Notes under the pieces: generated by a model | Database searches by the model: none | What the model was told of the DNA's origin: nothing | The model's input: only the letters and a program-made list of their open reading frames with translations | In this document: positions 1 to 44,564 of the stretch, one piece after another | Layout: each line of letters opens with the position of its first letter | Position numbering within the stretch: the stretch's first letter is position 1 | Source of the DNA: Bacteroidota bacterium | GTDB lineage: Bacteria > Bacteroidota > Ignavibacteria > UBA10030 > UBA8401 | Reading direction: 5' to 3' | Assembly (NCBI GenBank): GCA_035298825.1 | Contig: DATGXR010000208.1 | Coordinates: 22,473 to 86,472 of the forward strand | Length of the DNA stretch: 64,000 nt | Translations under genes and position numbers: made by a program

Positions 1-1358
1 AGCAGCAACACGTCGCCGGGCTCAAGCGTGACATCGTTCGATCCGTATGATTCATCGCGGAACATGCCGACCGCCATGCCGCTCGATTCGAGCTGCACAA
101 GCTCGCTCGTCTGTGCGCGCCACAGGATGCCCGGCGGATGGCCCGCGTTCACCGAATGCAGCGTCCGCGTCACATCGCTGTACGATGCCATGATGAGCGT
201 CGCGAAAAGTTCACTGTCCTCTGTGTCCTCGCACAACGTGTTGTTCGTTTCGCCGATGAGACATTCAAGATTCGTAAATCGCCGGCTCTCGGAACGGAGG
301 ATGCTCCTGAGCGACGCGAGAATGAACGCCGAGCCGAGTCCGTGTCCAGACACGTCGGCCACGCCAAAGATCCATTCGTTCCTGCCGCATTCGAAGCACG
401 AATACAAATCGCCTCCGACTTCGGCCGCCGGATGACATCGTGCCGCAATATCGAGTGTTGAAAACGCGGGCAGACGCTTCGGCAGAAGACTTTCCTGGAT
501 CTTTCGCGCAAAGTCAAATTCATGCCGCAGGGCTTCGGCCTCGCGAGCTTCCTTGATCAGAAGCGAGGATTTGATCGCGATGCCGAGATAGCCTGCCAGC
601 GCGGTCAGCGAAACACGGTCGCCCGTCGTGAATCTGCCCTCATGATGTTTCGACGCGACAAGCACCGCTCCCATCGATACATTGTCGGCGGCGACGGGCA
701 CGGCAAGCAGTCCAGGCTTGCCGCCCGATGATTCCGACGTCTCGGCATTTTTTTCTTCGACGATGATATGCGTATTCGCGGTGCAGACGTATTCGGCGTA
801 TCCGAGAATCTCGGTATCGCTCAGTCCGCCTGTGTCTCCGATCGAACAACGTTTCACCATGGCTGATATCGCATCGTCAATGAACGCCACAGCGCCGTAT
901 CCCACATCGAGGGTCTGCATCGCTTTCTGCAGCACCGCCATACAGATGCTGTCCTCGTCGAGCACCGAACTGACATCGTTGATGACATCGTACAACACAT
1001 GCAGTTCCTGATATCGCTCAAGGAGCTCGGTCGACAGGTTCTGCATCTCCTCTTCATTCTTGATGATGAAGACGATGACCTCGGTGGTGAAATCGAGCAC
1101 CTGTTCGCGCAACAGTTCGGTGCCCGGCAGCGGCTGGTCCAACGAATACAGATACCACTTTGAACCGTCGCGCAGCACGATCGCCCGTTCCGTTTCCTGC
1201 GCGATCTCGTTCAGGAACGGTTCGCTGCGATCCTCAACCGGTGTCTTCACAATCTCCGTCCGATCGCTGTCAAGCAGACAGAAGGGGATGCCGGTATATC
1301 TCGCGACATTGGTGAGAAATTTCGATACGGCTTCTTGTAATACTGTGCTTGCTATCAT
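1..1358 (-). CDS. PP2C-family serine phosphatase (SpoIIE/RsbU-like) with N-terminal GAF-like domain; partial, 3' end runs off the window start
   Basis: Absent from the ORF track because it has no stop inside the window. Hand translation of the minus strand gives ...CGRNEWIFGVADVSGHGLGSAFILASLRSIL... (the PP2C/SpoIIE GDVSGHG-type motif) and ...NDVTLEPGDVLLL at the window edge. The upstream half (MIASTVLQEAVSKFLTNVARYTGIPFCLLDS...NVSMGAVLVASKHHEGRFTTGDRVSLTALAGYLGIAIKSSLLIKEAREAEALRHEFDFARKIQESLLP) looks like GAF followed by the SpoIIE N-terminal region. The ATG (complement 1358-1356) lies 11 nt after the stop of the upstream gene. Confidence 0.8.
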   Translation of the reverse strand, partial: MIASTVLQEAVSKFLTNVARYTGIPFCLLDSDRTEIVKTPVEDRSEPFLNEIAQETERAIVLRDGSKWYLYSLDQPLPGTELLREQVLDFTTEVIVFIIKNEEEMQNLSTELLERYQELHVLYDVINDVSSVLDEDSICMAVLQKAMQTLDVGYGAVAFIDDAISAMVKRCSIGDTGGLSDTEILGYAEYVCTANTHIIVEEKNAETSESSGGKPGLLAVPVAADNVSMGAVLVASKHHEGRFTTGDRVSLTALAGYLGIAIKSSLLIKEAREAEALRHEFDFARKIQESLLPKRLPAFSTLDIAARCHPAAEVGGDLYSCFECGRNEWIFGVADVSGHGLGSAFILASLRSILRSESRRFTNLECLIGETNNTLCEDTEDSELFATLIMASYSDVTRTLHSVNAGHPPGILWRAQTSELVQLESSGMAVGMFRDESYGSNDVTLEPGDVLL

Positions 1359-1369
1359 CGGGGAATCGG

Positions 1370-3328
1370 TTACATGCGCTGCGATGCCACATCGGGATCG
1401 CGCAGTTGATAAATAATGATCGAATCATCGCTGTAAAAGACGCTCATATCGGCATGTGTCCGGATGTATGTCTCGCACCATTGGCGCGTGCGCCGCATGG
1501 CGTCCTTGTCGAGCGGAGCAATCTCGGAGCTGATTGCGCTGGCGTCTGAATTCTTTTCAATGAAAATAAACACAAGCGCCGTCGGAATGGAGCCGCGCTG
1601 TCCGTGCCGATATGTCGCCGGATCGTACAGCGATGTAAAATATTCATAATCGAGGAAGCGCCCGCGGTTCATTCCAGCCAGTAATATACCGCGATGCGCG
1701 ACAATTGTCCATTGATAGGGAATGTACGTCCGTTCGATCGCATACAGATTTTTGACGAATCCGTCGGGCTCTGCCGTGCTGCCGATTGCTGCGGGTGTTC
1801 CCGGAAACAACAAGATCACCGCGCCCAGCGCGCATATTGCTGCCGATGTTCGCACGCTCACGGCGAGCGCCTGCGAGAGACGGACTTTCGCCATCACCCA
1901 TTCGAACAAATCAAGGATGATTCCTGCGCAGAGTCCGATGGTGACGGCCGCGACGACACTGAGCAGGTATACCGATTGCGCTGCCGGCAGCGTTTCGGGA
2001 AGACCTGCGGCGAAGGGAGGGAGCATCGCAAGAAAGAGCATGCCCGTTGCGCCCCATCCAATCAGATGCATGTGCCAGGATTTCCGCGGACGCGGGATGA
2101 ACGCGACGGCAATGAGTACGACAAACATGCCGGCACAGCACTGGATAAACCATCCCTCGGGTATTGCAGTGATGTCGGCATAGCGATAAAAATGCGTGTC
2201 GTAGAAAATAATCTGAAGCACCGTTTGCATGGACGCATCGGCATAGGCATATGCCCATAACGCGCACGCCAAGAGGCCGAGCACGACAGTCAACATCGCA
2301 TGCAGGGCAAGCGTCCGGCCGCGAAGCCTCGGCAGCGAATGGAGAATGAAGATCGACGAGCACAGAATCGCCGCAGCGGCGAATAAACCAGCGCATCCCA
2401 CAAAAACATTGATCAGCGCGCTTGCCGCGAGTCCCGACAGGGAGGCGAAGAGTCGCAGGGGAGTTCCCTGCGTCACGTAGTTCATCAAAAATGTCAGCGA
2501 CGGGAGGAGAAAAACGAGCGCGAGCGTGAGGCTGTCCGCTTCAATCTGATGGTTCACGGAGATCGGCAGAAACGCATAGGCGCAGCCAAGAACCGCTGTT
2601 CCAATGGCAGCCTCGATGTGGCTCCGCACGGCGGCGAAAATCGTATAATAGATCGACGCGCACAGAAGGAGCGAGGAGATGAGACCGAAATAATGCACGG
2701 CGATTGTGGGATCGACCTGTGAAGCAATGCACAGGGCGCTGATGATTGCAGGCATGCCCATATACATGCGCGACGATCCGAGGTGGACCTGGTTGATCTG
2801 CAGACGCTTCACCTGTTCGAGCGTCTCGTAATATTCAGGCGACAGCGGCGCGGGATGCTCCCAGACGGGGCCGATGCGGATGATGATCGCCGCAATACAG
2901 ATTGCCAGAAACGTGCCGAGATACAACAAGCGGACGATGATCTCACGCTTCCACACGAAGGAGATCGACATGCCGAAGCGCTTCAGAATGGACGGCCGCG
3001 ACACGATTTCGACCCACCGCAGCAACACCGATTTGATCAGCACGAAACCGATATGCTTCCGCCGGTACATCATCCACCACTTGAATCCGACGATCCAGAG
3101 GCTCAGGATGACGATCGAAATATTATCGTTGATCTTCAGCTGCACGAAGATCTGCGTCATGACAATCGTCAGCAATCCCATGAACAGTCCCATCCCGAAT
3201 ACGCGCTCGGCGAGACTCTTCGAAGGGAACGCGGGGAAGAGCATCGCAGGCAGAACGGCGAACAGCATCGCGCATGCGGGCAGCATCCGGAGCATCGAAA
3301 TGATCAATATGGAATGATAGTCGCTCAT
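1370..3328 (-). CDS. large polytopic inner-membrane protein (about 14 or more hydrophobic helices, C-terminal soluble tail of about 110 aa); function unknown, candidate polymerase/export component of the EPS locus
   Basis: 652-aa ORF, almost entirely hydrophobic helices, with an AAGGA Shine-Dalgarno ahead of the ATG at 3328. It is packed 6 nt downstream of the preceding membrane-protein gene in the same operon. I see no recognisable family motif. Confidence 0.55.
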   Translation of the reverse strand: MSDYHSILIISMLRMLPACAMLFAVLPAMLFPAFPSKSLAERVFGMGLFMGLLTIVMTQIFVQLKINDNISIVILSLWIVGFKWWMMYRRKHIGFVLIKSVLLRWVEIVSRPSILKRFGMSISFVWKREIIVRLLYLGTFLAICIAAIIIRIGPVWEHPAPLSPEYYETLEQVKRLQINQVHLGSSRMYMGMPAIISALCIASQVDPTIAVHYFGLISSLLLCASIYYTIFAAVRSHIEAAIGTAVLGCAYAFLPISVNHQIEADSLTLALVFLLPSLTFLMNYVTQGTPLRLFASLSGLAASALINVFVGCAGLFAAAAILCSSIFILHSLPRLRGRTLALHAMLTVVLGLLACALWAYAYADASMQTVLQIIFYDTHFYRYADITAIPEGWFIQCCAGMFVVLIAVAFIPRPRKSWHMHLIGWGATGMLFLAMLPPFAAGLPETLPAAQSVYLLSVVAAVTIGLCAGIILDLFEWVMAKVRLSQALAVSVRTSAAICALGAVILLFPGTPAAIGSTAEPDGFVKNLYAIERTYIPYQWTIVAHRGILLAGMNRGRFLDYEYFTSLYDPATYRHGQRGSIPTALVFIFIEKNSDASAISSEIAPLDKDAMRRTRQWCETYIRTHADMSVFYSDDSIIIYQLRDPDVASQRM

Positions 3329-3334
3329 CGTTCC

Positions 3335-4999
3335 TTAGTAGGCGGCATAATAATAATAATCGAGCTTGTTGAAGAACTGGCGCGCATAGTTCATCGTCAT
3401 CAGCGCAAACACGAGCGAGCCGAACACGAGTCCTCCCACACCGTATTCATAATGGATCCAGCGGCTCAGCAGCAGACTCACCACCACATTGACGCCGAGT
3501 CCGGCGACGATCGAGCGGATCGCGAATTCGGGCCGCGAGAGCGTGAAGAAGAACAGGCAATTGTAGAGTCCGAGTGCGAGAAAAAAGTATCCGAATGCCG
3601 CCGCCCAAAAAACTTGGAATGTCACCACGTTGCTGAAAAATTCGCGTACCTCGCGGATGTAATCGAATCGCTGGAGCGAAAGGACGCCGAAGTACGTCAC
3701 CATGATGCTCAGGACGCCGATTGACAGGATGGCCGCAAGATGCCGCACAAAGAATTTTTTATAGAACATGATATACGCGCCCGCGTCGTCGTTGCGAACG
3801 CTGCGCTGCTGAAAGATCTGATGATATGAAAATTCATGAATCATATACTCGAGCGCGGCCATGGTGAGCACAAGCGAGAGCAGCGCCCAGTCCATGCCAA
3901 GTTCGTACGACGTCCTGAACCAGATGATGTACGGAGGCGGCTCCGGATTCGGCGCGGACCAGCTCACGATGCGGTCCACGAACAGATTGAAAAAGTACAG
4001 GAAGCCGTAAACGAAATACGGCGCCACCGTATACACACGCACGGGCGGATGCGGCAGCCGGCTCGATTTGAGGAACGTATCGGTCCGCTTCGCGCGGCGT
4101 CGCAGGATGAAGATCGTATAGGCGGCCGTGAGCACGATTGCAGTGCTCATGCCTGCCGCATGAGCAACGTAGATACCGAGGCGCGTGTATTCCATTACGA
4201 GATAGACGGGAATCACTCCCGCCATCGTGAAGACAAACACGGCAAATTGTTTGTCGAGCACGTAGGCCAGCGATGAAAACAGCCACAACTCGGACAGAAG
4301 CACGAAATACATGAGACTGATGAGGACGAGCCTGTTGTCGTAATAGGGAATGATGAGGTTCAGCAGGTAGAGCGCGGTGCCTGCAAGCAGAACCACGACA
4401 GTAGCCGCCGCGATGATCTTCAGCGTGATCTGCTGCGCCAGGAAATAATTCTTATGTCCCGCGTACCGTACACCTTCGCGTCCGATGCTTTGGATGAATC
4501 CTCCGGTCACGATGAAACTGAGTATCGTTCCGATTGCGACGACGGTGGCTTGCGCCTCGGTAAAGTCGACCCACGCCCAGAGCGAGTAGCGCAGGAGCAG
4601 CACGGAAGCGATCTGTCCCGCCATCGGAAGCGCAGCCCATGCGCCTTTGAAATAAAACAACAGTGCGCGGGCAAGCTTGTTCTCGCGCTTCGGTGGTTCC
4701 GGCGGTCCCTGTTCGGGCCGCGTGCGTTCGGCATCCACATGGATCAGGTACAGCACTCGTTCGGCGAGTGTGAACAGGTCGTGACGCTGGTACTGCTTGA
4801 TGGCATCGATATCGCGCAGACCGAGACTCTCGAGCGCAGCCGCCACAGCCCAGACGTCGAGCGGCTCGCCGATAAGATTGAAGACTTCGCGCGCCAGATG
4901 CACTTCCTGCTCGGCAAGAAGCGTCGAAAATACGCGCCGGGTCGTCGGGGCGACGCTCTTGATATCGTTCTGTATGTCTGTTGATTCGTCAGCGCTCAT
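3335..4999 (-). CDS. polytopic membrane protein with about 125-aa cytoplasmic N-terminal domain and about 12-13 TM helices; possibly PelG-like / MOP-superfamily polysaccharide exporter
   Basis: 554-aa ORF whose start codon overlaps the stop of the upstream GT4 gene (ATGA at 4996-4999). The TM count and position after PelF-like genes suggest an exporter, but I cannot show PelG homology by eye. Confidence 0.5.
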   Translation of the reverse strand: MSADESTDIQNDIKSVAPTTRRVFSTLLAEQEVHLAREVFNLIGEPLDVWAVAAALESLGLRDIDAIKQYQRHDLFTLAERVLYLIHVDAERTRPEQGPPEPPKRENKLARALLFYFKGAWAALPMAGQIASVLLLRYSLWAWVDFTEAQATVVAIGTILSFIVTGGFIQSIGREGVRYAGHKNYFLAQQITLKIIAAATVVVLLAGTALYLLNLIIPYYDNRLVLISLMYFVLLSELWLFSSLAYVLDKQFAVFVFTMAGVIPVYLVMEYTRLGIYVAHAAGMSTAIVLTAAYTIFILRRRAKRTDTFLKSSRLPHPPVRVYTVAPYFVYGFLYFFNLFVDRIVSWSAPNPEPPPYIIWFRTSYELGMDWALLSLVLTMAALEYMIHEFSYHQIFQQRSVRNDDAGAYIMFYKKFFVRHLAAILSIGVLSIMVTYFGVLSLQRFDYIREVREFFSNVVTFQVFWAAAFGYFFLALGLYNCLFFFTLSRPEFAIRSIVAGLGVNVVVSLLLSRWIHYEYGVGGLVFGSLVFALMTMNYARQFFNKLDYYYYAAY

Positions 5000-6501
5000 G
5001 CGTGTATCTGATTGTCGGCTGCAAGCCGTTCGTACGAAACTAAATATTCATTCATTGCGAGTGTTGTCCTGTATCGAAGCAGCACGCGGTCGCGCGAGAG
5101 CTTGCCGAGTCCCTGTCTGAGCTCGTGGTCGCGCAGCAGCGTCACAACGCCTTCGGCAAGACCCGCCGCATCGCGGGGACGCGCCAGAAGACCATAGGCC
5201 TCGACCGCTTCGCGCACTCCGCCTACGTCGGTCGCAACGACGGGCCGGGCGCATGCCATCGATTCGATGACGGTATAGGGAAATCCCTCGGAGATGCTCG
5301 AGAGAATACTGATGTCGCCCTCGTTATACACTTCGTGCGGCTTCGGATGAAACCCGCCGAAGATAAAATTTTTCTCAAGCGCATAATTACGGATGAGCGC
5401 CATGCATCGCTCCGTGTACGGCAGGTCCACATCCGCCGGACCGTAGACGATATATTGCACGTCCGGTATTTCCTTCCGCACCTCGGCACATGAATGGACC
5501 ATCGTTTCGATGTCCTTCAGCGGAAAGATGCGAGCCACGGCGACGACAGTCGGGCGATTCAGCGTCTTTTCCGGCTTCTGACGCGGCGTGAAGATTCCCG
5601 GATCGATGCCGTTGTAGATCGTCCTGATCCTGTCGCGCGATCCGCCGAATCGAAGCTCCCAGCGTTGATTGTATTCGCACACCGGCGAGATCTGATCGGC
5701 GCACGTATAGATCATGCGTGTCGCGTACGACGAGAGATTCAAGATGAACCGTTTCGCGAATCGGCTCAGCTTCTCGCTTGCAAGCGCGATATACCGTTCG
5801 CGGATGAAGATGCCATGATCCGTCACGACGATTCGCGCGCCGAATTCGTACTTCGCCGCCACTACCGCGAGACAGGAGGGACTGGCCAGCGTTGCATGGG
5901 CGATATCCACTCTGGGCAGTGCCACGCTCAACGGAAGCATGAAACTATACAGCCAGCGCAGCGCTGTCGTCACATCGAATAGGCTCGGCTGCTCTTCAGA
6001 CAAGTCACCCCATTGGCCGGCAGTCCTGAGCACCATCGCCCTGAACGTTTCCCACGTCAGACTCGAACGGAATGTCGTTTTATATTCATACTGTCTGAAA
6101 TATTTATAGAGCCGAAAAATTACCTCGGGACGCGGCGGCCGGCGGTTCGGATCGACGATGTCTTCGAGAAACTCCTCGAAGACGGGAATGAATTTTTCGC
6201 TGATGACCTCGTCCGTCGTTTCGGTCCTGTTTGTATAGATGTCGGCGAACGATCGTTCCGGCTGAATGTATTCTGACGGTTCCTCGCTGCCCCACATCGG
6301 CACCTGGCGCAGATACCGCACGTTCGACGGAAGCACATATTTCATCGTCGAGATGGGAGCGCCCGTTACCGCAATGATTGAAAAATGCACGGACTTCAAT
6401 TCGCGGATCAAACTGTCGCACCATGTGCTGACGCCGCCGCCGACGTACGGATACGTGCCTTCGGTGATGAGCAGTACGTTCAACTGGCGTTGTGCATTCA
6501 T
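4996..6501 (-). CDS. PelF-like glycosyltransferase (DUF3492 N-terminal domain + GT4 C-terminal domain)
   Basis: 501 aa. The N-terminus LNVLLITEGTYPYVGGGVSTWCDSLIRELKSVHFSIIAV matches the PelF/DUF3492 signature (P. aeruginosa PelF has CLLLEGTWPYVRGGVSSW). The C-terminal half carries a GT4 retaining-GT motif, ...ISILSSISEGFPYTVIESMACARPVVATDVGGVRE... Confidence 0.8.
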   Translation of the reverse strand: MNAQRQLNVLLITEGTYPYVGGGVSTWCDSLIRELKSVHFSIIAVTGAPISTMKYVLPSNVRYLRQVPMWGSEEPSEYIQPERSFADIYTNRTETTDEVISEKFIPVFEEFLEDIVDPNRRPPRPEVIFRLYKYFRQYEYKTTFRSSLTWETFRAMVLRTAGQWGDLSEEQPSLFDVTTALRWLYSFMLPLSVALPRVDIAHATLASPSCLAVVAAKYEFGARIVVTDHGIFIRERYIALASEKLSRFAKRFILNLSSYATRMIYTCADQISPVCEYNQRWELRFGGSRDRIRTIYNGIDPGIFTPRQKPEKTLNRPTVVAVARIFPLKDIETMVHSCAEVRKEIPDVQYIVYGPADVDLPYTERCMALIRNYALEKNFIFGGFHPKPHEVYNEGDISILSSISEGFPYTVIESMACARPVVATDVGGVREAVEAYGLLARPRDAAGLAEGVVTLLRDHELRQGLGKLSRDRVLLRYRTTLAMNEYLVSYERLAADNQIHA

Positions 6502-6505
6502 GAGA

Positions 6506-7708
6506 TCAATTCGATAATAATGTGCCGTACAATTGCCGATAGGTGCCGATCATCGCTTCGAGCGAATGTGTGCTCTCGACGATCGCCCTGCCCGCCTGCG
6601 AGCATGCCTCATAAAGCGGCCGGTCGGCAAGCAGTGACATCACGGCGCGCGCGCAGGCCGCATGATCGGCAGGGGGACAAAGAATTCCTGCATGGGCGAA
6701 GCCGGCGGGCGCAACGATCTCTGACACTCCGCCCACATCCGTTGCCACAACGGGAATGCCATACGACATCGCTTCAAGCAGTACAAGCGGCTGCGCTTCG
6801 CTTGCACTCGTGAGCACGGCCACATCGATCGACGGATAGAGGGCATGCACATCGGCCTCACCCGTAAACGAAAATTTTTTTAATCCGAGCGAATCGGCCA
6901 GTCGGACGCACTCCGCATAATACGCCGGATCGTGATGCGTGGGCCCGATGACGGACCATCGGGATTCGGGCATCGTCGTCTGCGCAACGGCGCATGCGCG
7001 TATGAACGTTGTAATATCCTTGAGCGGCGACACGCGTCCCACGAGCGCGATGTGTGCAGCTCCAGTTCTCGTTGTGTATGCCGAGATCTGCCGATCGATC
7101 GCCACGCCGTTTGGAATCACACGCGCCTTCCTCTCGCTTGCACCGAGTGCGATCTGGCTTCGACGGTTAAAATCGCAGACCGTCGTGATCGCATCGGCCG
7201 CCTCGTACGCATCGAGTGCGAGCGAGCGAAACGTTTCGCTCCAGCTTTCCCACGTGCGGCCGAGCGCGAGCGGTCCCGCTTCGGTTTCGACGATCTTGAA
7301 TCCGCATTCGAGTTCGCCGATGCCCAGTTCAGCCTCGCGCCAGTAGAGTCCGTGTTCAGTCAGCAGCATTGGTGCGCGGCGGCGCCGTTTCAGCGCCGTG
7401 CCGAGGTATCCCGCAAATCCCGTCGAAAGGGGATGATACATGCGCGCAACCGGCACCTGATCGAGCAGCGTATCGAGTCCAATTGTGAGCGGAGTGCCAT
7501 GCTCGGGTGCATTGAGCGAGATATCGACAACAGAACGGATATTCGACGGAACTCTGTAGCGTTTCTCTCGCGGTCTCTCTCCATAATACAAATGCGCCAC
7601 GCAAAACGTCAGTTCACTCAATCCGTTGACAAGCGCATCGACCCACGCTGCCACTCCTCCCGTTTTGTACGGGTACGTTCCTTCAAGCACGAGGCAGATA
7701 TCGGTCAT
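6506..7708 (-). CDS. second PelF-like GT4 glycosyltransferase (shorter paralogue)
   Basis: 400 aa. The N-terminus ICLVLEGTYPYKTGGVAAWVDALVNGLSELTFCV carries the same DUF3492-type motif, followed by a GT4 EX7E-type region (...LTSASEAQPLVLLEAMSYGIPVVATDVGGVSE...). The start overlaps the stop of the upstream kinase gene (ATGA at 7705-7708). Confidence 0.75.
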   Translation of the reverse strand: MTDICLVLEGTYPYKTGGVAAWVDALVNGLSELTFCVAHLYYGERPREKRYRVPSNIRSVVDISLNAPEHGTPLTIGLDTLLDQVPVARMYHPLSTGFAGYLGTALKRRRRAPMLLTEHGLYWREAELGIGELECGFKIVETEAGPLALGRTWESWSETFRSLALDAYEAADAITTVCDFNRRSQIALGASERKARVIPNGVAIDRQISAYTTRTGAAHIALVGRVSPLKDITTFIRACAVAQTTMPESRWSVIGPTHHDPAYYAECVRLADSLGLKKFSFTGEADVHALYPSIDVAVLTSASEAQPLVLLEAMSYGIPVVATDVGGVSEIVAPAGFAHAGILCPPADHAACARAVMSLLADRPLYEACSQAGRAIVESTHSLEAMIGTYRQLYGTLLSN

Positions 7709-8118
7709 GTCGACTGGGCCTGTTTGGTGGAGATGGACATTTTCAATTCGGTGCCAACCGGCTGCTGGATGAGCTGCACATCGTCCATCAGCGAACGGAT
7801 GAGGTAGATGCCGTATCCGCCTTCGCTTGCGATGTCGGTATCGGGCGAATCATATTGATCCATTCGCATCCCGATGCCGTAATCGCGAATGTTCAGTCGA
7901 ATTGTCGATCCATCGATTTCAAGCGACACATCCACGCGTCCCTCACGCGCCGGTTTGTATCCATGGACGATGCAGTTGGTCACCGCCTCGCTCGACGCAA
8001 GCAGTACACGATTCACGATGTCGGCATGGATGCCCGTGTCGATGAGCGTATCCGCGATCCAATTTCGGATCTCCTTTACTTTTTCAGGCGTGCAGTGGAA
8101 CGATGACTGTGCGTTCAT
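7705..8118 (-). CDS. anti-sigma regulatory factor / partner-switching serine kinase (RsbW/SpoIIAB-like, HATPase_c_2)
   Basis: 137 aa with ...SEAVTNCIVHGY...VDVSLEIDGSTIRLNIRDYGIGM...GGYGIYLIRSLMDDV, the N-box and G-box pattern of GHKL-type anti-sigma kinases. It sits inside the EPS operon. Confidence 0.75.
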   Translation of the reverse strand: MNAQSSFHCTPEKVKEIRNWIADTLIDTGIHADIVNRVLLASSEAVTNCIVHGYKPAREGRVDVSLEIDGSTIRLNIRDYGIGMRMDQYDSPDTDIASEGGYGIYLIRSLMDDVQLIQQPVGTELKMSISTKQAQST

Positions 8119-8199
8119 GCCGTTTTTTCTTTCGGTGATTGTAAAGATCGTGCGATGCTGTCCGCGATCGAAGGCGGTCGGTACACCGCGGTCCGTTAC

Positions 8200-9051
8200 T
8201 TATCGTGCCGGCAGGGTATTCAATTCGATCGTGCTGACAAACGATGAAAATCCATGGCTCCGTGACTGGTTGCGCGCATATGCGCGCGTCAGCGAATCGC
8301 CCTCAGGCGCATAATCGATCGCAAAAATCCTGAGTCCGTACGAGGTATGGAGCGCGGCGAGTTCGGCGCAGCGCGTCTCCGATGCGTCCTTCCGCACCGG
8401 GATGTACGTTTTATCCTTAAAATTATATGTGGCGAATACACTTTCAACAACAATGCCGTCGATCGCATCAGCGACTTCGGGAGCAAGAAACGTTCCATTG
8501 TTCATGAGTATGATCTTGTCGGGAAACTCCTCACGCATTGCATGGATGAGCTCGACCACGCCCGGCCGCAGCATCGGATAGAGGTCGGGTGATGCCACAT
8601 CCACCATATCGAGAAAAATTCCCTTGAATGATTTTCCAAAAATCACGGGAAGCACTTGGTCGATCAGCAGGGAATGCCAGCCGGATTTTGAGGCGTCGAC
8701 GTAAAAATGATCGGGCCAATTCGGATTCGCTCCCAACATCCATTCGGGACGGATATCCTTGTAATACCATCTGTACGATTCGGCCTCGCCGATGTTGATG
8801 TACGCGACGGGAATGATACCGCGTGCCGAGAGCGAATCGGCTTCATGCCTGCGGCTCTGGTCGGGATCGATGATCATCATCTGATACGGCAGCATCCGTG
8901 CGAGGCTGTAGTCGCCGGAAAACTGGACTCCGAAGTGATCGACAGAAGTAAGAGCGGTGCGTGGATTCGGATGACCCGGGCCGGACGATTCGCGACAGGC
9001 AAACGCAGTGATCAAACAAAGCAACAGCAGCGAAGCGAAGAGTGTGCGCAT
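8200..9051 (-). CDS. GH114-like glycoside hydrolase lipoprotein (PelA hydrolase-domain-like / TM1410 family; putative endo-alpha-1,4-polygalactosaminidase)
   Basis: Signal peptide plus lipobox (MRTLFASLLLLCLITAFAC) followed by a TIM-barrel-like region with ...GIIPVAYINIGEAESYRWYY...GIFLDMVDV...ILMNNGTFL...IDGIVVESVF, reminiscent of the GH114 family. Start taken at the internal ATG (9051); the ORF-track start is 9099. Confidence 0.6.
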   Translation of the reverse strand: MRTLFASLLLLCLITAFACRESSGPGHPNPRTALTSVDHFGVQFSGDYSLARMLPYQMMIIDPDQSRRHEADSLSARGIIPVAYINIGEAESYRWYYKDIRPEWMLGANPNWPDHFYVDASKSGWHSLLIDQVLPVIFGKSFKGIFLDMVDVASPDLYPMLRPGVVELIHAMREEFPDKIILMNNGTFLAPEVADAIDGIVVESVFATYNFKDKTYIPVRKDASETRCAELAALHTSYGLRIFAIDYAPEGDSLTRAYARNQSRSHGFSSFVSTIELNTLPAR

Positions 9052-9196
9052 TGATTGGTGATCGATTTTTCGTGTTATAATAGAGAATTTTCTAATCAAA
9101 AAATATACGATAAAACGTACTTACATACAATTGATCTCTGTATAATGAGGCAGAAAACGCCGAAAAAAATCCCGTCATCGGCCGAGGCTTCGCATG

Positions 9197-10663
9197 TCAA
9201 TTCGATCTGGAGATCCGGGCTGAAAGCGAGCCGACGGCGATCGTCGTCATCGAACCGATCACAGTGTGCCAGGTAAAATCGATCTTCGTCCAAAACACAA
9301 CATACACCATCACGAGAATGCCGCAGAGAAATCCGATCACGGCATCGCGCTGATCGGTTCGATGAAACAGGATTCCGAGAAAGAAGGTCCCGAGCAGTCC
9401 GCCGTATGTGAACGAGGCGATCTTCAGACCGATCTCGACAACCGGATTTGTCGTGTCGGTGAAGAGCATCGCTCCGCCGATGAGCACCACGCCCCAGAAG
9501 AGCGTGAACACCTTCGACCAGGTCATTTCTGTTTTGGCGTCGAGAGCTTTGCCTTTGGCGGTCATCCTGAACAGATCGAGGAATGTCGAAGACGCGAGCG
9601 AGTTGATCGATGACGACAGCGTTCCCATGGCCGATGCCAGCACGCCCGCCACAAGCAGTCCGGCCAGTCCCGTGGGCAGATTCTCGACGATGAATTTCGG
9701 AAAGATTTCATCGCTCGAATGAAGTCCCAATTGCTGAAAGGGGACGCCATGATAGAAGGCGAACAGGCAGAGGCCGAGGATGAGGAAAAACGCGAATTGC
9801 AGCACGATCATCGTCGCATCGAGCATCAATGCCCGCTGGCTGTCCCATTGTTTTCTGCATCCGAGCAGACGCTGTACGAGCAACTGATCGGTGCCGTGCG
9901 AGGCCATTGTGAGAAACGTGCCGCCCACGAATCCGCCGATGAGCGTATAGGGCGTGGTGAAGAATGAAAGGAGGTCTGAGGGCGCGCTCAGGTTGAAGAT
10001 CTCGAATTTGTTCGATCCGCCGGCGGTCGCATAGGCGAAGACGTCGGCCCAGCCGTTGGGAAGGTGCTGGATGATCAGGACCATCGAAGCCGCGGCGCCC
10101 GTCAGATAAATGCACATCTGCACCACATCCATCGCCACGACGGCCTTCAATCCGCCGACGTACGTATAGGCGAGCGTAAACGCGCCGATGAGAAGAATGC
10201 TGTGCGCGTACGAGAGTCCGGTGACCAGATGCACGGGGATGGCGGTGGCGAAGAGCCTCACGCCCGAGGCGAGCACGCGTGTGACGATGAAGACGCTCGA
10301 TGTAAATGTGCGCAGCGGAATTCCATAGCGCTTGCCGAGGAAATCGTATGCTGTTTCGAGATTGCCCTTGTAATAGGCCGGGATGAAGATGACGCTCACA
10401 AGCAGTCTGCCGATGAAATACCCGAAAACAAGCTGGAGAAAATGCATGTCGCTTCGATAGGCGAGGCCGGGGATGCTGATGAATGTGAGCGTGCTTGTTT
10501 CGCTTGCGACGATCGAGAATCCGACCGACCACCAGGACATCGATTTTCCGCCGAGAAAATAGTCACGCGTCGTTTGTTGCCGGCCTGCGATGATGGCGCC
10601 GATGACGGTGACGCCGAGGAGATAGATGATGACGATAACGTAATCGAGGAAGGCAAAACCCAT
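9197..10663 (-). CDS. sodium:solute symporter family (SSF/SLC5-like) transporter
   Basis: About 490 aa with 13-14 TM helices and SSF-like patterns (...GGKSMSWWSVGFSIVASETSTLTFISIPGLAY...). Start chosen at MGFAFLDYVIVIIY, which has an AAGGA Shine-Dalgarno 7 nt upstream. Confidence 0.8.
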   Translation of the reverse strand: MGFAFLDYVIVIIYLLGVTVIGAIIAGRQQTTRDYFLGGKSMSWWSVGFSIVASETSTLTFISIPGLAYRSDMHFLQLVFGYFIGRLLVSVIFIPAYYKGNLETAYDFLGKRYGIPLRTFTSSVFIVTRVLASGVRLFATAIPVHLVTGLSYAHSILLIGAFTLAYTYVGGLKAVVAMDVVQMCIYLTGAAASMVLIIQHLPNGWADVFAYATAGGSNKFEIFNLSAPSDLLSFFTTPYTLIGGFVGGTFLTMASHGTDQLLVQRLLGCRKQWDSQRALMLDATMIVLQFAFFLILGLCLFAFYHGVPFQQLGLHSSDEIFPKFIVENLPTGLAGLLVAGVLASAMGTLSSSINSLASSTFLDLFRMTAKGKALDAKTEMTWSKVFTLFWGVVLIGGAMLFTDTTNPVVEIGLKIASFTYGGLLGTFFLGILFHRTDQRDAVIGFLCGILVMVYVVFWTKIDFTWHTVIGSMTTIAVGSLSARISRSN

Positions 10664-10754
10664 GGACGATCCTTCTTCAGATGTCGGTGGCCGCATGTGA
10701 AACGGCGCTTGCGAGAGTGCGCCGTCTCACACGGGAAAAGTGCATGTGCAGAAG

Positions 10755-11087
10755 TCAGGCTTTTTCGGCTTTTGCAACAGAGTCGAAGACGGGGAAGACC
10801 TTGTCGAGCTGTGAGATCTTAAGCAGCGACAGAACTTTTTTATGCACGCCCACAAGCTTGACTTTGCCTCCTTGCTGGCGCATGAGGCGTTCGGCGATCA
10901 GCAGAGCACTGAGACCCGAGCTGTCGCAAAATTCGACGTCGCCCAAATCTACGATCAGTGTTTTGACTGTGGGACGGCACAAGAGGATGAACTCGCCTTT
11001 CAATTCCGGAGAGACGGACACATCCAGCTTCCGTTCCTTGACGACGAGCACGACACTGTTCGCATTCTTGGTCACCTCAAACTTCAT
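10755..11087 (-). CDS. STAS-domain anti-sigma-factor antagonist (SpoIIAA/RsbV-like)
   Basis: 110-aa product MKFEVTKNANSVVLVVKERKLDVSVSPELKGEFILL...LIVDLGDVEFCDSSGLSALLIAERLMRQQGGKVKLVGV is a classic STAS fold, with the DSSGL motif holding the phosphorylatable Ser. The ORF track extends upstream from a TTG; start chosen at the internal ATG. Confidence 0.75.
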   Translation of the reverse strand: MKFEVTKNANSVVLVVKERKLDVSVSPELKGEFILLCRPTVKTLIVDLGDVEFCDSSGLSALLIAERLMRQQGGKVKLVGVHKKVLSLLKISQLDKVFPVFDSVAKAEKA

Positions 11088-11106: not shown

Positions 11107-11649
11107 TTAAAACATTGCAAGCGTGTTGACCAGCTGCTCGTATTGAAGTTTCGGCATACGCGCCGATGCTGTCTGCAGCTGTAGATTGTAGACCGTTTCG
11201 CTCTGCGGTGAACCGAATCCCGCTTTGAGCGGCACATCGAGCTGAGCGCAGACTGATGCGGCCAGCGGAGTGATGCCAAGATTGAGGTCGACGATCACGT
11301 CGTATGTCCGTTCGCGCAGCCGGGTGATGAGCGAGGCCTTCGGCAAAAAGAAATATCCGATCTGATCCTCGTGCACGGGCACCATCATGCATTGGTGAAG
11401 CTTGCCGGCGATCGAGTGCGAGGTCTCCGTCGACGAAAGGATCGTCATTGAATTCCCCTTAAACTGCATTTGAGCGTGCTGCACGACGGAGAGTGCGATT
11501 GAACGATGCGCTTCGTCGAACGGCATAATGAACAAGGCCGAGCGCGCCTTCGTATAGATGCCCCGAAAATTTATTTGTTTCGCGCGCAACCGGCGTCCCT
11601 GCACGCGCGCGATCATCATGCCGATATTTTTTCTCAAGTCTTCAAACAT
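11107..11649 (-). CDS. hypothetical protein (weak resemblance to the C-terminal half of GT9 heptosyltransferase-like proteins)
   Basis: 180 aa from the internal ATG (ORF track 11107..11703). The segment DVIVDLNLGITPLAASVCAQLDVPLKAGFG loosely resembles the GT9 ...G.MHLAAALGVP...FG... region. No confident family assignment. Confidence 0.4.
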   Translation of the reverse strand: MFEDLRKNIGMMIARVQGRRLRAKQINFRGIYTKARSALFIMPFDEAHRSIALSVVQHAQMQFKGNSMTILSSTETSHSIAGKLHQCMMVPVHEDQIGYFFLPKASLITRLRERTYDVIVDLNLGITPLAASVCAQLDVPLKAGFGSPQSETVYNLQLQTASARMPKLQYEQLVNTLAMF

Positions 11650-11772
11650 AACTGGAATTAAATTGCAAAAGGTTTGAATGAAAAGCAAGAACGGCCGGCT
11701 CAAAAAAATTACGGATCACGTATGTGTGCGACAGTTCGCGAGAGCAACCGCCCATGCGCTTCTGTGCGATGC

Positions 11773-17001: not shown

Positions 17002-18288
17002 TTACAAACGATGGGGGGCAAGCCGCAACTGCACTTCATGAGACCGCTTGATCTTGCCTTCGATCGTCGCCAGGAACAATTCGAGATCGACCGGCTTCAG
17101 GAAGTACCCGTCCGCTCCCATTTGCATGCCCGTTCGCTGCACGGCTTCCTGCGCCATGCCGCTTAAAAAGAGGAAGGGACAATGGAAAAATTTTTCCATT
17201 GCACGGAACTTTTCATAGAACGCAAATCCGCTGATGTTCGGTTTCGAGAAATTGACGTCGCACACGACGATATCCGGAGTGAGCGACTCGAGCGTCTTCA
17301 ACGCATCTTCGCATGTGGGAACCGCAACACAGTACAGACCCGCATCGGTCAGCTGCCTGCCCGCCAATTCGAGGAATTCGGTGTCGTCGTCTACAAGCAG
17401 CACTGTGCCCACCGAGCGGAGCGACTGGAGCAGACGAAACACGCGTCCTTCGATCTGCAGATGTTCCTGGTCCGAGATCCTGAACTGCCGTCGAAGATCA
17501 TCGAAGTTCGTGATGCCTTTCTTCCAGGCATGTTCGATCGCATTCACATAGGCGTCGAAACGGACCTCGCGCTCGATTGAAAGATGCTCCTCGTTCGTAA
17601 TTGCAAACGAGTCGCGCATTGCGCGCACACGTTCGCGATCCTCATCCGTGATCACGCCATTCTCCCAGACCTCGCTGAGCAGCGTCTTGTAGGCCTGGAG
17701 GAGTGCCGGTGTATGCTTCATAAAATCGAACGGCGGTTGAAGCGGAACCTCGAGTGTGACCGGCGTCTGGGCCGCCGCAGTATCAACGGGAGACGGAGGG
17801 GGAGCCTCGTGTGTCAACGTTTCCGACACCGAATCATACGGCGCACTCTCGTCTTGTTCCGCGTTTGTCGCCGGGACCGCATCCGTCACAGGCGCCGCAT
17901 CAGTCGCGGGCTCCGGTTCGCGCATCTGCGGAAGTTCCTGCGACTGAGGTTCAGTTGATTCCGTTTCGGCCGGCTGAGGCTCCTGGGGCGCGGCGGATTC
18001 CGATTCGACAGCTTGAGCCTTCGCGGACTCCAGTTCCATTACGGCCTTCGCGTTTTCCGCCGCAAGTTTTTCGGCATGCGCCTTGGCGGCGATCTGCGAT
18101 TCTTTCAGCGAAAGAATGCGCTCCTGATACGCGCGCGCGTACACATTACGGGGATCGAATTCGAAAACCCGGCTGATGGCGGCGAGAGCAAGATCGAGGT
18201 TGCCATCTTTGATCGACTTATCCGCCGATCGGAGAAGTTCGCTCACCGCTCTTTGATTCTCTGGTGTCATATGTCTGTGGTCTGCCAT
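17002..18288 (-). CDS. atypical response regulator: N-terminal TPR-like segment, long Glu/Pro-rich acidic linker, two tandem ~30-aa repeats, C-terminal receiver (REC) domain
   Basis: The REC domain is at the C-terminus (...VLLVDDDTEFLELAGRQLTDAGLYCVAVPTCEDALKTLESLTPDIVVCDVNFSKPNISGF...LKP...), not the N-terminus. Internal repeats: ITDEDRERVRAMRDSFAITNEEHLSIEREV and ITNFDDLRRQFRISDQEHLQIEGRV. Confidence 0.7.
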   Translation of the reverse strand: MADHRHMTPENQRAVSELLRSADKSIKDGNLDLALAAISRVFEFDPRNVYARAYQERILSLKESQIAAKAHAEKLAAENAKAVMELESAKAQAVESESAAPQEPQPAETESTEPQSQELPQMREPEPATDAAPVTDAVPATNAEQDESAPYDSVSETLTHEAPPPSPVDTAAAQTPVTLEVPLQPPFDFMKHTPALLQAYKTLLSEVWENGVITDEDRERVRAMRDSFAITNEEHLSIEREVRFDAYVNAIEHAWKKGITNFDDLRRQFRISDQEHLQIEGRVFRLLQSLRSVGTVLLVDDDTEFLELAGRQLTDAGLYCVAVPTCEDALKTLESLTPDIVVCDVNFSKPNISGFAFYEKFRAMEKFFHCPFLFLSGMAQEAVQRTGMQMGADGYFLKPVDLELFLATIEGKIKRSHEVQLRLAPHRL

Positions 18289-18294
18289 TTCGTG

Positions 18295-19143
18295 TTACCG
18301 CATCCCCAATTCGCGAAGCACGCGTTCGCGCGGTGCTTGAACAGGAAATTTTTCTCCCGTCCAGAGTGTGAAGGCGCGCGCTCCCTGGTGTATGAACATG
18401 TCCATTCCGTTGATCACTGCGGCCCCGTCCGCCGCCGCCTTCCGCAACAGGGCGGTCTGAAGGGGAGTGTACACAATATCGAAAATAATTTGATGATTTG
18501 AAAATCTTGTCTCGTTGGGAAGAGGCATCGCGTCGGTGTCGGGCGTCATACCCACAGTCGTCGTGTTGACGATGAGGCGCGCCTGGGATGCGGCCTGGAC
18601 GAGGTTGGCGGCTTCGACAACGTCGAAGCGCACATCGGGAAACAGCGCCGCAAATATGGCCGCTGTCTGCCGCGCCCGCTCTGTATTCCTGTTGTGTATC
18701 ATGATCGTGCAGGGACGGAATTCCGCGGCCGCGTAGAGCGCTGCGCGCGAGGCCCCTCCGGCTCCGAGAACGAGCAACGGTTCGTTGCTCAGCATTGCGG
18801 CGTGAGGGACGAGCGATGCGCGCACTCCGTCGACATCCGTATTCTCTCCGCGCAGCACACCGTCTGTGTTCACGATCGTATTCACCGCGCCAAGCGCGGT
18901 CGCCTCGCCGCTCAGTTCATCGAGGAGCGGCATCACCGCTTCCTTGTGCGGCTTTGTGACATTCGCTCCGCGCACATGTTCACGGCGCATCGCCTCGAGC
19001 AGGCCCGGCAGCATCTCGCCGCTCACATCGAACACGCCATACGTATAGGGAAGTCCGAGTACGCGAATCGCTTCGTTGTGCAAGGCGGGAGACAGTGTAT
19101 AGCTGATATGATGACCGATGATGCCTAAGAGGCTCTGTTTCAT
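18295..19143 (-). CDS. aroE: shikimate dehydrogenase AroE
   Basis: ...LLGIIGHHISYTLSPALHNEAIRVLGLPYTY... and the NAD(P)-binding ...LVLGAGGASRAALYAAAE.... Start chosen at MKQSLLG; the ORF track extends to 19188. Confidence 0.85.
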   Translation of the reverse strand: MKQSLLGIIGHHISYTLSPALHNEAIRVLGLPYTYGVFDVSGEMLPGLLEAMRREHVRGANVTKPHKEAVMPLLDELSGEATALGAVNTIVNTDGVLRGENTDVDGVRASLVPHAAMLSNEPLLVLGAGGASRAALYAAAEFRPCTIMIHNRNTERARQTAAIFAALFPDVRFDVVEAANLVQAASQARLIVNTTTVGMTPDTDAMPLPNETRFSNHQIIFDIVYTPLQTALLRKAAADGAAVINGMDMFIHQGARAFTLWTGEKFPVQAPRERVLRELGMR

Positions 19144-19191
19144 AGGGTCCGCATTGTGTTCGATTGAGACGCTGCAGCGGGTCTGCATGAC

Positions 19192-19234
19192 AAAAAAAAC
19201 CTAATCCCGTGTGACACAAAGATTAGGTTTTTTT
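19192..19234 (-). terminator. bidirectional rho-independent terminator-like hairpin after the TPR gene
   Basis: AAAAAAAACCTAATC-ccgtgtgacacaaa-GATTAGGTTTTTTT has a 9-bp stem flanked by an A-run and a T-run. Confidence 0.6.
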
Positions 19235-19252
19235 ACATCCGTAGGAGATTCC

Positions 19253-20686
19253 TTACGAACGCAGCAATGAACCGACGAAGTCCTTGATCGATCGCACGCG
19301 GGCAAAATCATCGTCGAAGCGTTCGCGCATTGTACTGTCGAGTCCGAAGGCCGTCTTGAGCGAGTCGATGGCGTCCGTGATTTTTCTCGTCAGGAAGAAC
19401 AATTTGGCCTTGCTGTAATACGGTTCTGCGAATTTCGGATTGAGCTCGATGCTTTTTTCAAGAGCCGGAAGCGCTTCGTCGAGCTGGTTTAATTCCAGCA
19501 GTGTGTCGCCGTAGTCGAACCATGCCTCGGAGTTTGCCGGATCGAGCTGCACCACCATCTTGTAGCTCAGAATCGATTCCTTCTGCTTTCCCATGTTGTA
19601 TTCGCAGTCGGCCTTGGCATACCACAACTCGGGATATTCGCGGCACAATTCAAGGGCGCGATTGTAATCGCTCATCGCCTTGCCGAATTGCTCCATCGCG
19701 TCGAAGCAGCTGCCGCGTCCGAAGAATGATTCGTAATGTTCGCTGTCAAGTTGTATCGCGCGCGTGAAGCATTGCACCGCATCGGGATAATTTTCAGCCT
19801 CTTCGTAGGCGTTGCCGAGATTGTGCCATGCGGGCACATCGTTGGGCTCGTAGCGAAGCGTCTGCCTGTAGCATTCGATCGCTTCCTGAAGCTTGCCGGC
19901 CGACGCCATTGCATTGCCTTTGTTGTACCATGCGGAGGCGAAGTCCTCTTTGATCGCGATCGCCATATCATAGCTTTCGATCGATCGTTTCGAATCGCCG
20001 GAGCGGGCAAGGACGATGCCGCGGTTGTACCAGGCGTTGAAATTGTACGGATCGCGGTTGATGTGTTCGTCGTAGCATTTGAGCGATTCGTCGAGCCGGT
20101 CCATCAGATCGTAGCAGAATCCGAGCTCGAACCAGATGTCGCGATTGTCGCGGTGATCGTCAAGCAGGAAGTTCAGGATCTCGACCGCTTCGGCGTAGCG
20201 TTCCATCTTCTCGAGCGTGATCGCTTTATTAAACAACGCTTCGTCGTTGTTGGGCGAATATTCCAAAGCGCGATCGAAGTCGACGAGCGCCTCTTCGCCG
20301 CGGTTCGCATTGTCGAGCGTGATGCCGCGGTTGATGAACAGATCGCTGTCCGCCGGATTGAGCGAGAGCGCCTGATCGTAACAGAAAAGCGCTTCGTCGT
20401 ACCGGCACATGTTGTTGAGCAGCATGCCTTTGCACATCCAGGCATCGGAGCTGTACGGCGCGAATTCTACAAGCTGATCGGCGAATCCTAACGCTTCTTC
20501 AAACCGTTCCTGCTCAAAATAAAAATTGACAATCTCTTCGAGCGCCTCGATGCTGGAGATACCGTTGCCACCCTTCTTCAGCAGCTCCTTGAACCGCTCG
20601 ATATCTTCCTCTCGATGATTCTTCTTGGGAGAATGGCTGCTCTCCATATCATCTTCAAAAAAATTGTCGGAGTCGAAATAGGACAT
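19253..20686 (-). CDS. TPR-repeat protein (about 11 tetratricopeptide repeats)
   Basis: 477 aa with many repeats of the W..G..LA..G....A...Y..AL...P.. pattern (e.g. AWYNRGIVLARSGDSKRSIESYDMAIAIKEDFASAWYNKGNAMASAGKLQEAIECYRQTLRYEPND). Confidence 0.8.
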   Translation of the reverse strand: MSYFDSDNFFEDDMESSHSPKKNHREEDIERFKELLKKGGNGISSIEALEEIVNFYFEQERFEEALGFADQLVEFAPYSSDAWMCKGMLLNNMCRYDEALFCYDQALSLNPADSDLFINRGITLDNANRGEEALVDFDRALEYSPNNDEALFNKAITLEKMERYAEAVEILNFLLDDHRDNRDIWFELGFCYDLMDRLDESLKCYDEHINRDPYNFNAWYNRGIVLARSGDSKRSIESYDMAIAIKEDFASAWYNKGNAMASAGKLQEAIECYRQTLRYEPNDVPAWHNLGNAYEEAENYPDAVQCFTRAIQLDSEHYESFFGRGSCFDAMEQFGKAMSDYNRALELCREYPELWYAKADCEYNMGKQKESILSYKMVVQLDPANSEAWFDYGDTLLELNQLDEALPALEKSIELNPKFAEPYYSKAKLFFLTRKITDAIDSLKTAFGLDSTMRERFDDDFARVRSIKDFVGSLLRS

Positions 20687-20875
20687 AGGGGTGCTTCTTG
20701 ATGCGTTGTAAACTGAGAATGTGACTATGGATTAATTAACAAAAAAACAATAGTGAAGTCAATAGGGAGGGAGGGGATGGACGTAAATCGCTAAAAATAG
20801 CCGATTTACGGCGATTATTTGCATTTCAACTTCAGTCTCCGTACATTGGAAGAAACATTCAAACGGACAGCTTCT

Positions 20876-21328: not shown

Positions 21329-21361
21329 CGCTCACACAGATTCTCGAATATCCGGACAGGA

Positions 21362-38603: not shown

Positions 38604-38650
38604 AGACTATCGGCTGATTTGGTACATTGTCATAAAAATCTGTTCCAATA

Positions 38651-44472: not shown

Positions 44473-44564
44473 TCCGGTTTTTCGGATCAGAAATTGGTCA
44501 CACTGAAAAAAAAACGCTCCACGCAGTGAATGGCATCGTCAACAAGAAAAAGGGAACAACGCTC

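Follow-up and report, generated by a model that had tools for sequence, protein, structure and literature searches.

A predicted GT-C-fold membrane protein encoded beside PelG in Pel-like exopolysaccharide clusters of Ignavibacteria and other bacteria

In a stretch of 64,000 nucleotides from a Bacteroidota bacterium of the class Ignavibacteria (the window; contig DATGXR010000208.1 of assembly GCA_035298825.1, positions 22,473-86,472), two neighboring genes encode large membrane proteins that we propose to be components of a Pel-like exopolysaccharide machine. The upstream gene product, 554 amino acids (aa) in length, is by its sequence very probably PelG, the MOP-superfamily translocase of Pel systems. 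The downstream product, 652 aa in length and here named X, belongs to an unannotated family and, judging from its structural model, almost certainly has the fold of the GT-C glycosyltransferases. Pel is among the most widespread bacterial biofilm polysaccharides. The Pel system employs a Wzx-like MOP protein, PelG. Our overall reading, to which we assign a probability of about 0.5, is that PelG and X work together in a Pel-like machine, X being a lipid-phosphate-dependent transferase at the outer face of the cytoplasmic membrane. PelG is already known and annotated; what would be new, on the predicted fold, is X as an undescribed GT-C family in an unexpected pathway. The features concerned are the following.

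3335-4999, minus strand: PelG-family (MOP-type) polysaccharide translocase, 554 aa, of a divergent subfamily with an N-terminal extension (PF16933)
4646-4999, minus strand: PelG residues 1-118, predicted cytoplasmic N-terminal extension peculiar to the subfamily (conservation in the subfamily alignment, lysine plus arginine (K+R) content)
1370-3328, minus strand: X, 652 aa, predicted GT-C-fold membrane protein with 14 transmembrane (TM) helices (AlphaFold2 (AF2) model and Foldseek)
3125-3127, minus strand: codon of D68 in X (column counts; K+R topology)
2711-2857, minus strand: X residues 158-206, long extracytoplasmic loop and candidate EL1-like catalytic loop (model secondary structure, column counts, loop charge)
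1373-1807, minus strand: X residues 508-652, small alpha/beta C-terminal domain, predicted to be extracytoplasmic (model secondary structure)

The 554-aa protein matches the Pfam PelG model PF16933 with 44 bits (gathering cut-off 29, E=1.9e-11), residues 151-551 being aligned to model positions 63-452. Its sequence is the same (100% identity) as that of an NCBI entry from a Bacteroidota metagenome-assembled genome (MAG), an entry which carries the name 'exopolysaccharide Pel transporter PelG', and 192 homologues were retrieved at E<=1e-3. No NCBIfam model matches the protein, and a profile search of PDB sequences with the full-length alignment of its subfamily (A3) returned nothing meaningful. 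Compared with the proteins described by PF16933 it is divergent, as reflected in the modest score, in the first 62 model positions remaining unmatched and in an N-terminal extension of ~118 aa. Of 38 members of the subfamily, PF16933 recognized 24 and failed to recognize the other 14 at E<=0.01. The 554-aa protein is, in short, a divergent representative of a family that is already known and annotated.

Family-averaged hydropathy and K+R counts indicated that the first ~118 residues of PelG are soluble and rich in K+R and that 12 TM segments follow, the N- and C-termini both lying in the cytoplasm. The same MOP-type layout was reported for PelG (PMC13254593). The extension has no Pfam match; it is conserved across alignment A3, where P46, E57, G60, R62 and D65 are invariant, and was placed in the cytoplasm because it is rich in K+R. 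PelG proteins bearing it were found in Ignavibacteria, Balneolaceae, Calditrichota, KSB1, Anaerolineae, Myxococcota and Actinomycetota. The extension probably docks the cytoplasmic PelF glycosyltransferases. In locus L019, from a Caldilineae MAG, a single open reading frame (ORF) of 1253 aa (3482-7243) carries a PelF-like GT4 glycosyltransferase (residues 6-523) in frame with a PelG-like part (706-1253). This apparently genuine PelF-PelG fusion fits both a cytoplasmic extension and a role in docking PelF. An ORF in L086 that seemed to fuse PelG with X, and the overlong 'PelG' reading frames of L016 and L085, were rejected as start-codon artefacts of stop-to-stop ORF calling in GC-rich DNA and were not counted. 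An earlier note on this DNA had described the 554-aa protein as a PelG-like/MOP exporter with a soluble N-terminus of ~125 aa and ~12-13 helices, and on both points it was close to what we found. The note had further supposed that the machinery of this locus replaces PelG, which is incorrect as PelG itself is present in the operon. Its author could assign neither membrane protein to a family by eye and considered that either could be new; this holds for X, which has no curated family, and fails for the 554-aa protein, which belongs to PF16933.

For X, neither Pfam nor NCBIfam gave a match at E<=0.1, its C-terminal domain (508-652) had no Pfam match, and sequence-profile searches of the PDB yielded nothing meaningful. 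A word-indexed homologue search returned five relatives only, at 64-25% identity, and with a 99-sequence X profile the same five relatives and one YfhO/PMT_2 protein were obtained. A word index is unsuited to this fast-evolving family. When a profile made from X and its five relatives (a 6-sequence alignment) was scored against 1.84 billion representatives, 603 cluster representatives (50% identity) were found at E<=1e-3 and 122 at E<=1e-30, nearly all of them 630-700 aa long and matching end to end. A metagenome scan with the 6-sequence alignment yielded three loci. Public records label the family 'hypothetical protein'. The copy in the window is HLP16110.1, whose self-match is missing from the homologue search because its 90%-identity cluster is represented by a 55-aa fragment. 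Ten sampled family members were devoid of Pfam domains, apart from two with a C-terminal HlyD-type membrane-fusion domain. One UniRef entry for an X homologue is named Dol-P-Man protein mannosyltransferase, weak matches to curated GT-C families occurred in 3 of 72 relatives (DUF6541 twice, PMT_2 once), and the YfhO/PMT_2 protein forms a weak bridge at E=2e-8, with an hhalign probability of 63% for that pair. X is an unannotated family and, given its modelled fold, a candidate new GT-C family for which Pfam and NCBIfam hold no model.

The genomic setting of X was analyzed in 80 loci, which were obtained by scanning a single genome of each GTDB species with the PelG-subfamily profile and were thus chosen for their resemblance to this PelG subfamily. 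Loci were annotated with X and PelG profiles and with single-sequence queries for the neighboring genes. X was present in 64 of the 80 PelG-centred loci, which spread over several phyla. Among the 16 loci lacking it, 15 end no more than 6.5 kb downstream of PelG and one (L085, Solirubrobacterales) has 8 kb without X. PelF-PelG adjacency holds across all 80 loci. The recurrent gene set consists of two PelF genes (for proteins of 400 and 501 aa) followed by PelG, together with genes for a GAF/HD_5 protein, a GH114 hydrolase, X and a DUF2194 protein; loci of the Ignavibacteria, Calditrichota, KSB1 and Kryptonia type add the partner-switching genes STAS, RsbW and SpoIIE. In nine X-centred loci, X lies beside PelF/PelG, beside DUF2194 or, in the truncated L089, beside the phosphatase gene of the operon. 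Pairwise identities of X correlate with those of PelG (r=0.976) and of the 501-aa PelF, PelF501 (r=0.967), so that the three genes have been inherited as a unit; across several phyla, this unit also takes in the GH114 hydrolase and the DUF2194 protein. With a mean identity of 35%, compared to 50% for PelG and 58% for PelF501, X diverges fastest, which explains why simple searches miss it. We are confident, on these sequence comparisons, that X belongs to the Pel-like system as an integral component and is inherited together with it. Co-occurrence with DUF3492/PelF genes, suggested earlier as a check, turned out to be near-universal, placing both membrane proteins in the Pel-like machinery.

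The conserved setting also bears on the idea that X has a decorating function of the kind exerted by GT-C enzymes such as ArnT, YfhO or GtrC and would transfer a side-chain sugar from a polyprenyl-monophosphate donor to the exported polymer or to another envelope acceptor. Decorating GT-C enzymes are normally accompanied by a GT2 polyprenyl-phosphate sugar synthase of their own and often by a small flippase too, and neither was present in any conserved cluster examined. Moreover, strict 1:1 inheritance with PelG and PelF exceeds what would be expected of a dispensable decoration, and we regard this function as rather improbable.

Several loci carry further genes around X. A GAF-SpoIIE gene follows X in L003, L007, L008, L010, L011, L013, L014, L082, L087 and L088. 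In L008 (Ignavibacteriae), the closest long contig, the genes after X encode GAF-SpoIIE, GAF-HD_5, STAS and a DUF2194-TPR protein of 1342 aa; the window counterparts of those from GAF-HD_5 to DUF2194 would fall beyond its left edge. The L008 protein (17586-21614) consists of a DUF2194 part, similar to the deacetylase PelA_DA, fused to a long run of TPR repeats that is reminiscent of the PelB TPR scaffold. The DUF2194-TPR protein may form the periplasmic/outer-membrane leg of export in these diderms. In L023, from a Nannocystaceae MAG, a BcsB-like protein (cellulose synthase subunit B family, 2997-5129) is encoded beside X, and no DUF2194 gene was found within the 21-kb locus. Between or beside the PelF genes, Pfam identified an NTP_transferase (sugar nucleotidyltransferase) in L067 (7527-8330), L022 (7216-7950) and L041 (6241-7035). 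L010 has an ORF of 304 aa (7447-8361) at the matching position, and the window has no such gene.

An AF2 model of X built from the 6-sequence alignment was unusable (predicted local distance difference test (pLDDT) 49) and was kept out of the fold searches. The model from the 99-sequence alignment reached a pLDDT of 91.6 and a predicted template modelling score (pTM) of 0.92. It shows 14 long membrane helices up to residue 507 and then an alpha/beta domain of ~145 aa (508-652), similar to the earlier description of at least 14 helices and a soluble C-terminal tail of ~110 aa. In a Foldseek comparison of this model with the PDB, hits 1-18 were all GT-C enzymes (E from 7e-6, probability 0.99-1.00), with matches to DPY19, STT3, AftA, ALG12, ArnT, PglB, Emb and Pmt4. 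The earlier note had placed the 652-aa protein in the polymerisation/export machinery. As regards export this is not supported, for the fold predicted is GT-C, unlike that of MOP, Wzx, Wzy or BcsA proteins. That X transports or exports a substrate, as a MOP protein, an MFS-like protein or a member of some new exporter family, could be argued from the 14 TM helices, from the gene adjoining PelG, and from MFS/SLC proteins far down the Foldseek list together with SLC37A4 (E=0.02) in the PDB sequence-profile search. These Foldseek matches, however, have probabilities of at most 0.15 and TM-scores of ~0.1, all strong structural matches are GT-C, and the SLC37A4 match covers only 130 hydrophobic residues at 16 bits; a transporter can nearly be discounted. 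It is very improbable that X belongs to the SEDS/WaaL structural class, be it as a polymerase like Wzy or as a ligase like WaaL, its fold being no closer to WaaL, RodA or FtsW than to other classes.

The model thus predicts that X shares its fold with the group of GT-C enzymes formed by oligosaccharyltransferases (OST), ArnT, PMT and AftA (AglB 3WAJ, STT3, PglB 5OGL, ArnT 5F15, Pmt1/2 6P2R, AftA 8IF8). It differs from them in an identity of only 6-11%, in three extra N-terminal helices and in its small C-terminal domain, and also in context: X is encoded in a synthase-type Pel-like cluster, whereas the enzymes of this group act in N-glycosylation, lipid A or arabinan pathways. Helices 4-14 (residues 128-507) would form an 11-TM GT-C core, with the three extra helices preceding it. 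None of the 99 X-family members contains the OST motif WWDYG, whether as W[WYF]D[YWF]G or as WWD, and hence X is not a member of the OST family (STT3/PglB/AglB).

The orientation of X was derived from loop charges. Averaged over the family, loop 92-127 contains 7.3 K+R (net charge +3.2), loops 332-337 and 410-415 are also basic, and loop 158-206 has a net charge of -1.0. On account of this K+R distribution, loop 158-206 and the C-terminal domain were placed outside. An alternative topology with the N-terminus inside, 13 TM segments and loop 92-127 outside was rejected in view of the K+R content of that loop. The extracytoplasmic position of the C-terminal domain is independently supported by fusions of X to HlyD, in which no TM segment separates this domain from the periplasmic-type HlyD domain. 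The two fusion proteins are P0170 (1379 aa; L090 620-4759) and P0177 (1264 aa), and in both the HlyD domain follows a Pro/Ala-rich linker; in L090, two DUF2194 genes come after the fusion gene. The HlyD fusions hint at a physical connection between X and a trans-envelope conduit. Loop 158-206, the first outer loop of the presumed core, contains two short helices (165-177 and 191-203) and may be the counterpart of the GT-C loop EL1 with its juxtamembrane helices.

Several positions are strongly conserved in the 99-sequence alignment. Position 68, in a short loop between helices 2 and 3 that is predicted to face outward, is acidic in 97 of the 99 sequences (D in 49, E in 48). Near-invariant are also R151 (95 sequences), K174 (91), G191 (97) and an acidic residue at position 107 (98), and further G215, P276 and F587. 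Loop 158-206 additionally holds an acidic residue at 165 (D/E165, 70%) and Y167, and Q261 is conserved to 77%. R151 lies just before this loop and, like K174, at the predicted outer interface; overall, most near-invariant polar residues are predicted at the outer face.

These residues matter for the alternative that X is a non-catalytic scaffold of GT-C fold which replaces PelD/PelE, its cytoplasmic loop holding PelF by PelG and its periplasmic face guiding the emerging chain to the DUF2194 deacetylase. By analogy with PIGU of the glycosylphosphatidylinositol (GPI) transamidase, the fold would be kept only to bind lipid or glycan. A replacement of PelD/PelE by X is possible because the domains of PelD (GAF and degenerate GGDEF) and PelE (TM and TPR) were not found in Pfam and NCBIfam scans of the operon genes of the window, L008 and L036. 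The location of D/E68, R151, K174 and Q261 on the predicted outer face, in loops resembling EL1/EL2, is nevertheless the pattern to be expected of an active site or of a site for binding phosphate, and argues against a scaffold. A functional site is favored over a pure scaffold for three reasons: the invariant acidic and basic residues at the outer face, the best fold matches being enzymes whose donors are lipid-(pyro)phosphates, and the fact that X is paired with a MOP protein resembling Wzx. A scaffold is therefore unlikely, although it deserves to be taken seriously.

According to the mechanism we favor, the region would encode two consecutive membrane components of a Pel-like machine for an alpha-1,4-linked polymer of N-acetylgalactosamine/galactosamine (GalNAc/GalN). 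PelG would serve as the inner-membrane translocase, with its extension docking the PelF enzymes, and X would sit beside it, acting directly downstream at the outer face of the cytoplasmic membrane. GT-C enzymes use polyprenyl-phosphate-linked donors. The donor of X would similarly be a polyprenyl-phosphate-linked saccharide, bound at a site formed by D/E68, R151 and K174, from which X would move a sugar or glycan onto the emerging Pel-like chain so as to elongate it, ligate it or form an anchor for it. The next enzymes to receive the chain would be the DUF2194 deacetylase and the GH114 hydrolase. A GalN/GalNAc-type polymer is supported by the hydrolase of the cluster, which belongs to GH114 (endo-alpha-1,4-polygalactosaminidase family) and is not the GH166 domain of PelA. 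Within this scheme, it is slightly more likely than not that X is a catalytically active, lipid-dependent transferase; that its donor is a glycan flipped by PelG is doubtful.

A number of points weigh against this mechanism. The clusters examined yielded no GT2 polyprenyl-phosphate glycosyltransferase, no priming phosphoglycosyl transferase and no GtrA-like flippase, so that a lipid-linked donor would be left without a cluster-encoded source. The fold of X comes from a predicted structure and its catalysis is deduced from it, and the orientation of the three N-terminal helices relies on the positive-inside rule only. D/E68, R151 and K174 are a putative GT-C-type catalytic or phosphate-binding site by predicted placement only, and the invariant acidic residue D/E107 sits in a predicted cytoplasmic loop. 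Finally, according to published operon descriptions, from which and not from a search the absence of X was taken, the canonical pelABCDEFG and pelDEA_DAFG systems work without an X-like protein (PMC13254593, PMC7890745).

A bolder version would have the PelF enzymes build a GalNAc oligomer on polyprenyl-(pyro)phosphate, PelG flip it in a Wzx-like manner, and an OST-like X polymerize or ligate it outside. We consider this version unlikely. The parts would follow the logic of Wzx-flippase pathways (PglK/PglB, Wzx/Wzy/WaaL), namely cytoplasmic GT4 glycosyltransferases, a MOP protein and a polytopic, transferase-like protein at the outer face. Unlike those pathways, the cluster has no gene for a priming phosphoglycosyl transferase, and X falls outside the OST, Wzy and WaaL families. 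Pel, moreover, is not known to pass through a lipid-linked intermediate. If the bolder version were true, 'MOP flippase + GT-C polymerase/ligase' would be a previously unknown pathway, not purely synthase-type, in a large Pel-like clade, and would explain why Pel systems carry a Wzx-like protein.

The closest known type of cluster is pelDEA_DAFG of Bacillus cereus ATCC 10987 (PMC7112168, PMC7890745, PMC13254593). Both cluster types comprise PelF, PelG, a DUF2194 protein similar to PelA_DA and a separate hydrolase of the alpha-1,4-(N-acetyl)galactosaminidase type. The Gram-positive Pel deacetylase PelA_DA contains DUF2194 (PMC7890745); it is a de-N-acetylase whose TM helix is predicted to mediate binding to PelG (PMC13254593). 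In contrast to pelDEA_DAFG, the clusters described here are without PelD/PelE and contain two PelF paralogues, a GH114 hydrolase and X, and in their diderm representatives the DUF2194 protein is fused to TPR repeats. Regulation also appears to differ: in place of the cyclic di-GMP-binding PelD there is a complete partner-switching set of RsbW, STAS and GAF-SpoIIE, together with a GAF-HD protein, so that phosphorylation-based partner switching, and not a PelD-type receptor, would exert control. Like PelG of Pseudomonas aeruginosa and B. cereus, the 554-aa protein matches PF16933, has 12 TM segments with both ends inside and is encoded directly after a PelF-like GT4, with overlapping stop and start codons. 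Its partner is X instead of the PelD/PelE of known Pel systems. No description of a GT-C protein in pel loci was found in the open-access literature.

The other genes of the operon in the window, and the symporter gene lying among them, are arranged as follows.

11107-11703, minus strand: small protein of ~180-198 aa heading the operon (conserved)
10755-11087, minus strand: STAS anti-sigma-factor antagonist, the partner-switching substrate (PF01740, E=5e-16; 110 aa in relatives)
9197-10696, minus strand: sodium:solute symporter (PF00474, E=2.9e-40; TIGR00813, 209 bits)
8200-9099, minus strand: GH114 glycoside hydrolase, endo-alpha-1,4-polygalactosaminidase family (PF03537, E=1.3e-22)
7705-8118, minus strand: RsbW/SpoIIAB-like anti-sigma serine kinase, the partner-switching kinase (PF13581, E=9e-27)
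6506-7708, minus strand: second PelF-like GT4 glycosyltransferase, 400 aa (NF038011 PelF, 286 bits; PF11997 match too)
4996-6501, minus strand: PelF-like GT4 glycosyltransferase PelF501, 501 aa, DUF3492 and GT4 (PF11997, E=1.5e-46; NF038011 PelF, 167 bits)
1-1358, minus strand: gene of a GAF-SpoIIE (PP2C) phosphatase, 5' part, truncated at the window edge (translation; 516-aa orthologues with GAF and SpoIIE)

The two membrane-protein ORFs (1370-4999) are real genes, as had been assumed: they have many homologues, and their start positions agree with those of their relatives. As read from the sequence, the stop codon of PelF501 and the start codon of PelG overlap in ATGA (4996-4999), and the PelG stop codon is separated from the ATG of X by a 6-nucleotide spacer, GGAACG (3329-3334), in agreement with the earlier observation that the start codons overlap or abut the upstream genes. 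An 11-nucleotide spacer (1359-1369) lies between the X stop codon and the start of the GAF-SpoIIE phosphatase gene. Such tight spacing would be consistent with stoichiometric co-expression. The small protein heading the operon had no family match; its L008 orthologue gave a sub-threshold match to DUF6913 only (E=0.003). The GH114 protein has a lipoprotein-like N-terminus, LLLLCLITAFAC, with its likely true start at 9051 (relatives are called at 283 aa), and is probably a lipoprotein. The SSF-family symporter gene, which sits between the STAS and GH114 genes, is kept in the closest loci L002, L005 and L008. The rest of the window as sampled (21362-47023) consists of housekeeping genes unrelated to the Pel-like finding.

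21362-47023: other sampled genes, namely an AI-2E family transporter, a thioredoxin-like protein, MetH (25646-29164) and KdpD/KdpB/KdpA (35913-43055)
44253-47023: outer-membrane efflux protein with an HlyD-like adaptor

Taken over Balneolaceae, Ignavibacteria, Kryptonia, Calditrichota, KSB1, Chloroflexota, Myxococcota and Actinomycetota, a large set of Pel-like clusters almost always includes X, an unannotated protein of predicted GT-C fold. Its presence points to lipid-phosphate-dependent chemistry, or at least to a module that binds lipid or glycan, on the outer side in a supposedly synthase-dependent pathway, and hints at an unrecognised step in the making of the Pel-like polymer. As cultured strains of Gracilimonas, Fodinibius and Balneola carry the cluster, this role of X is directly testable.

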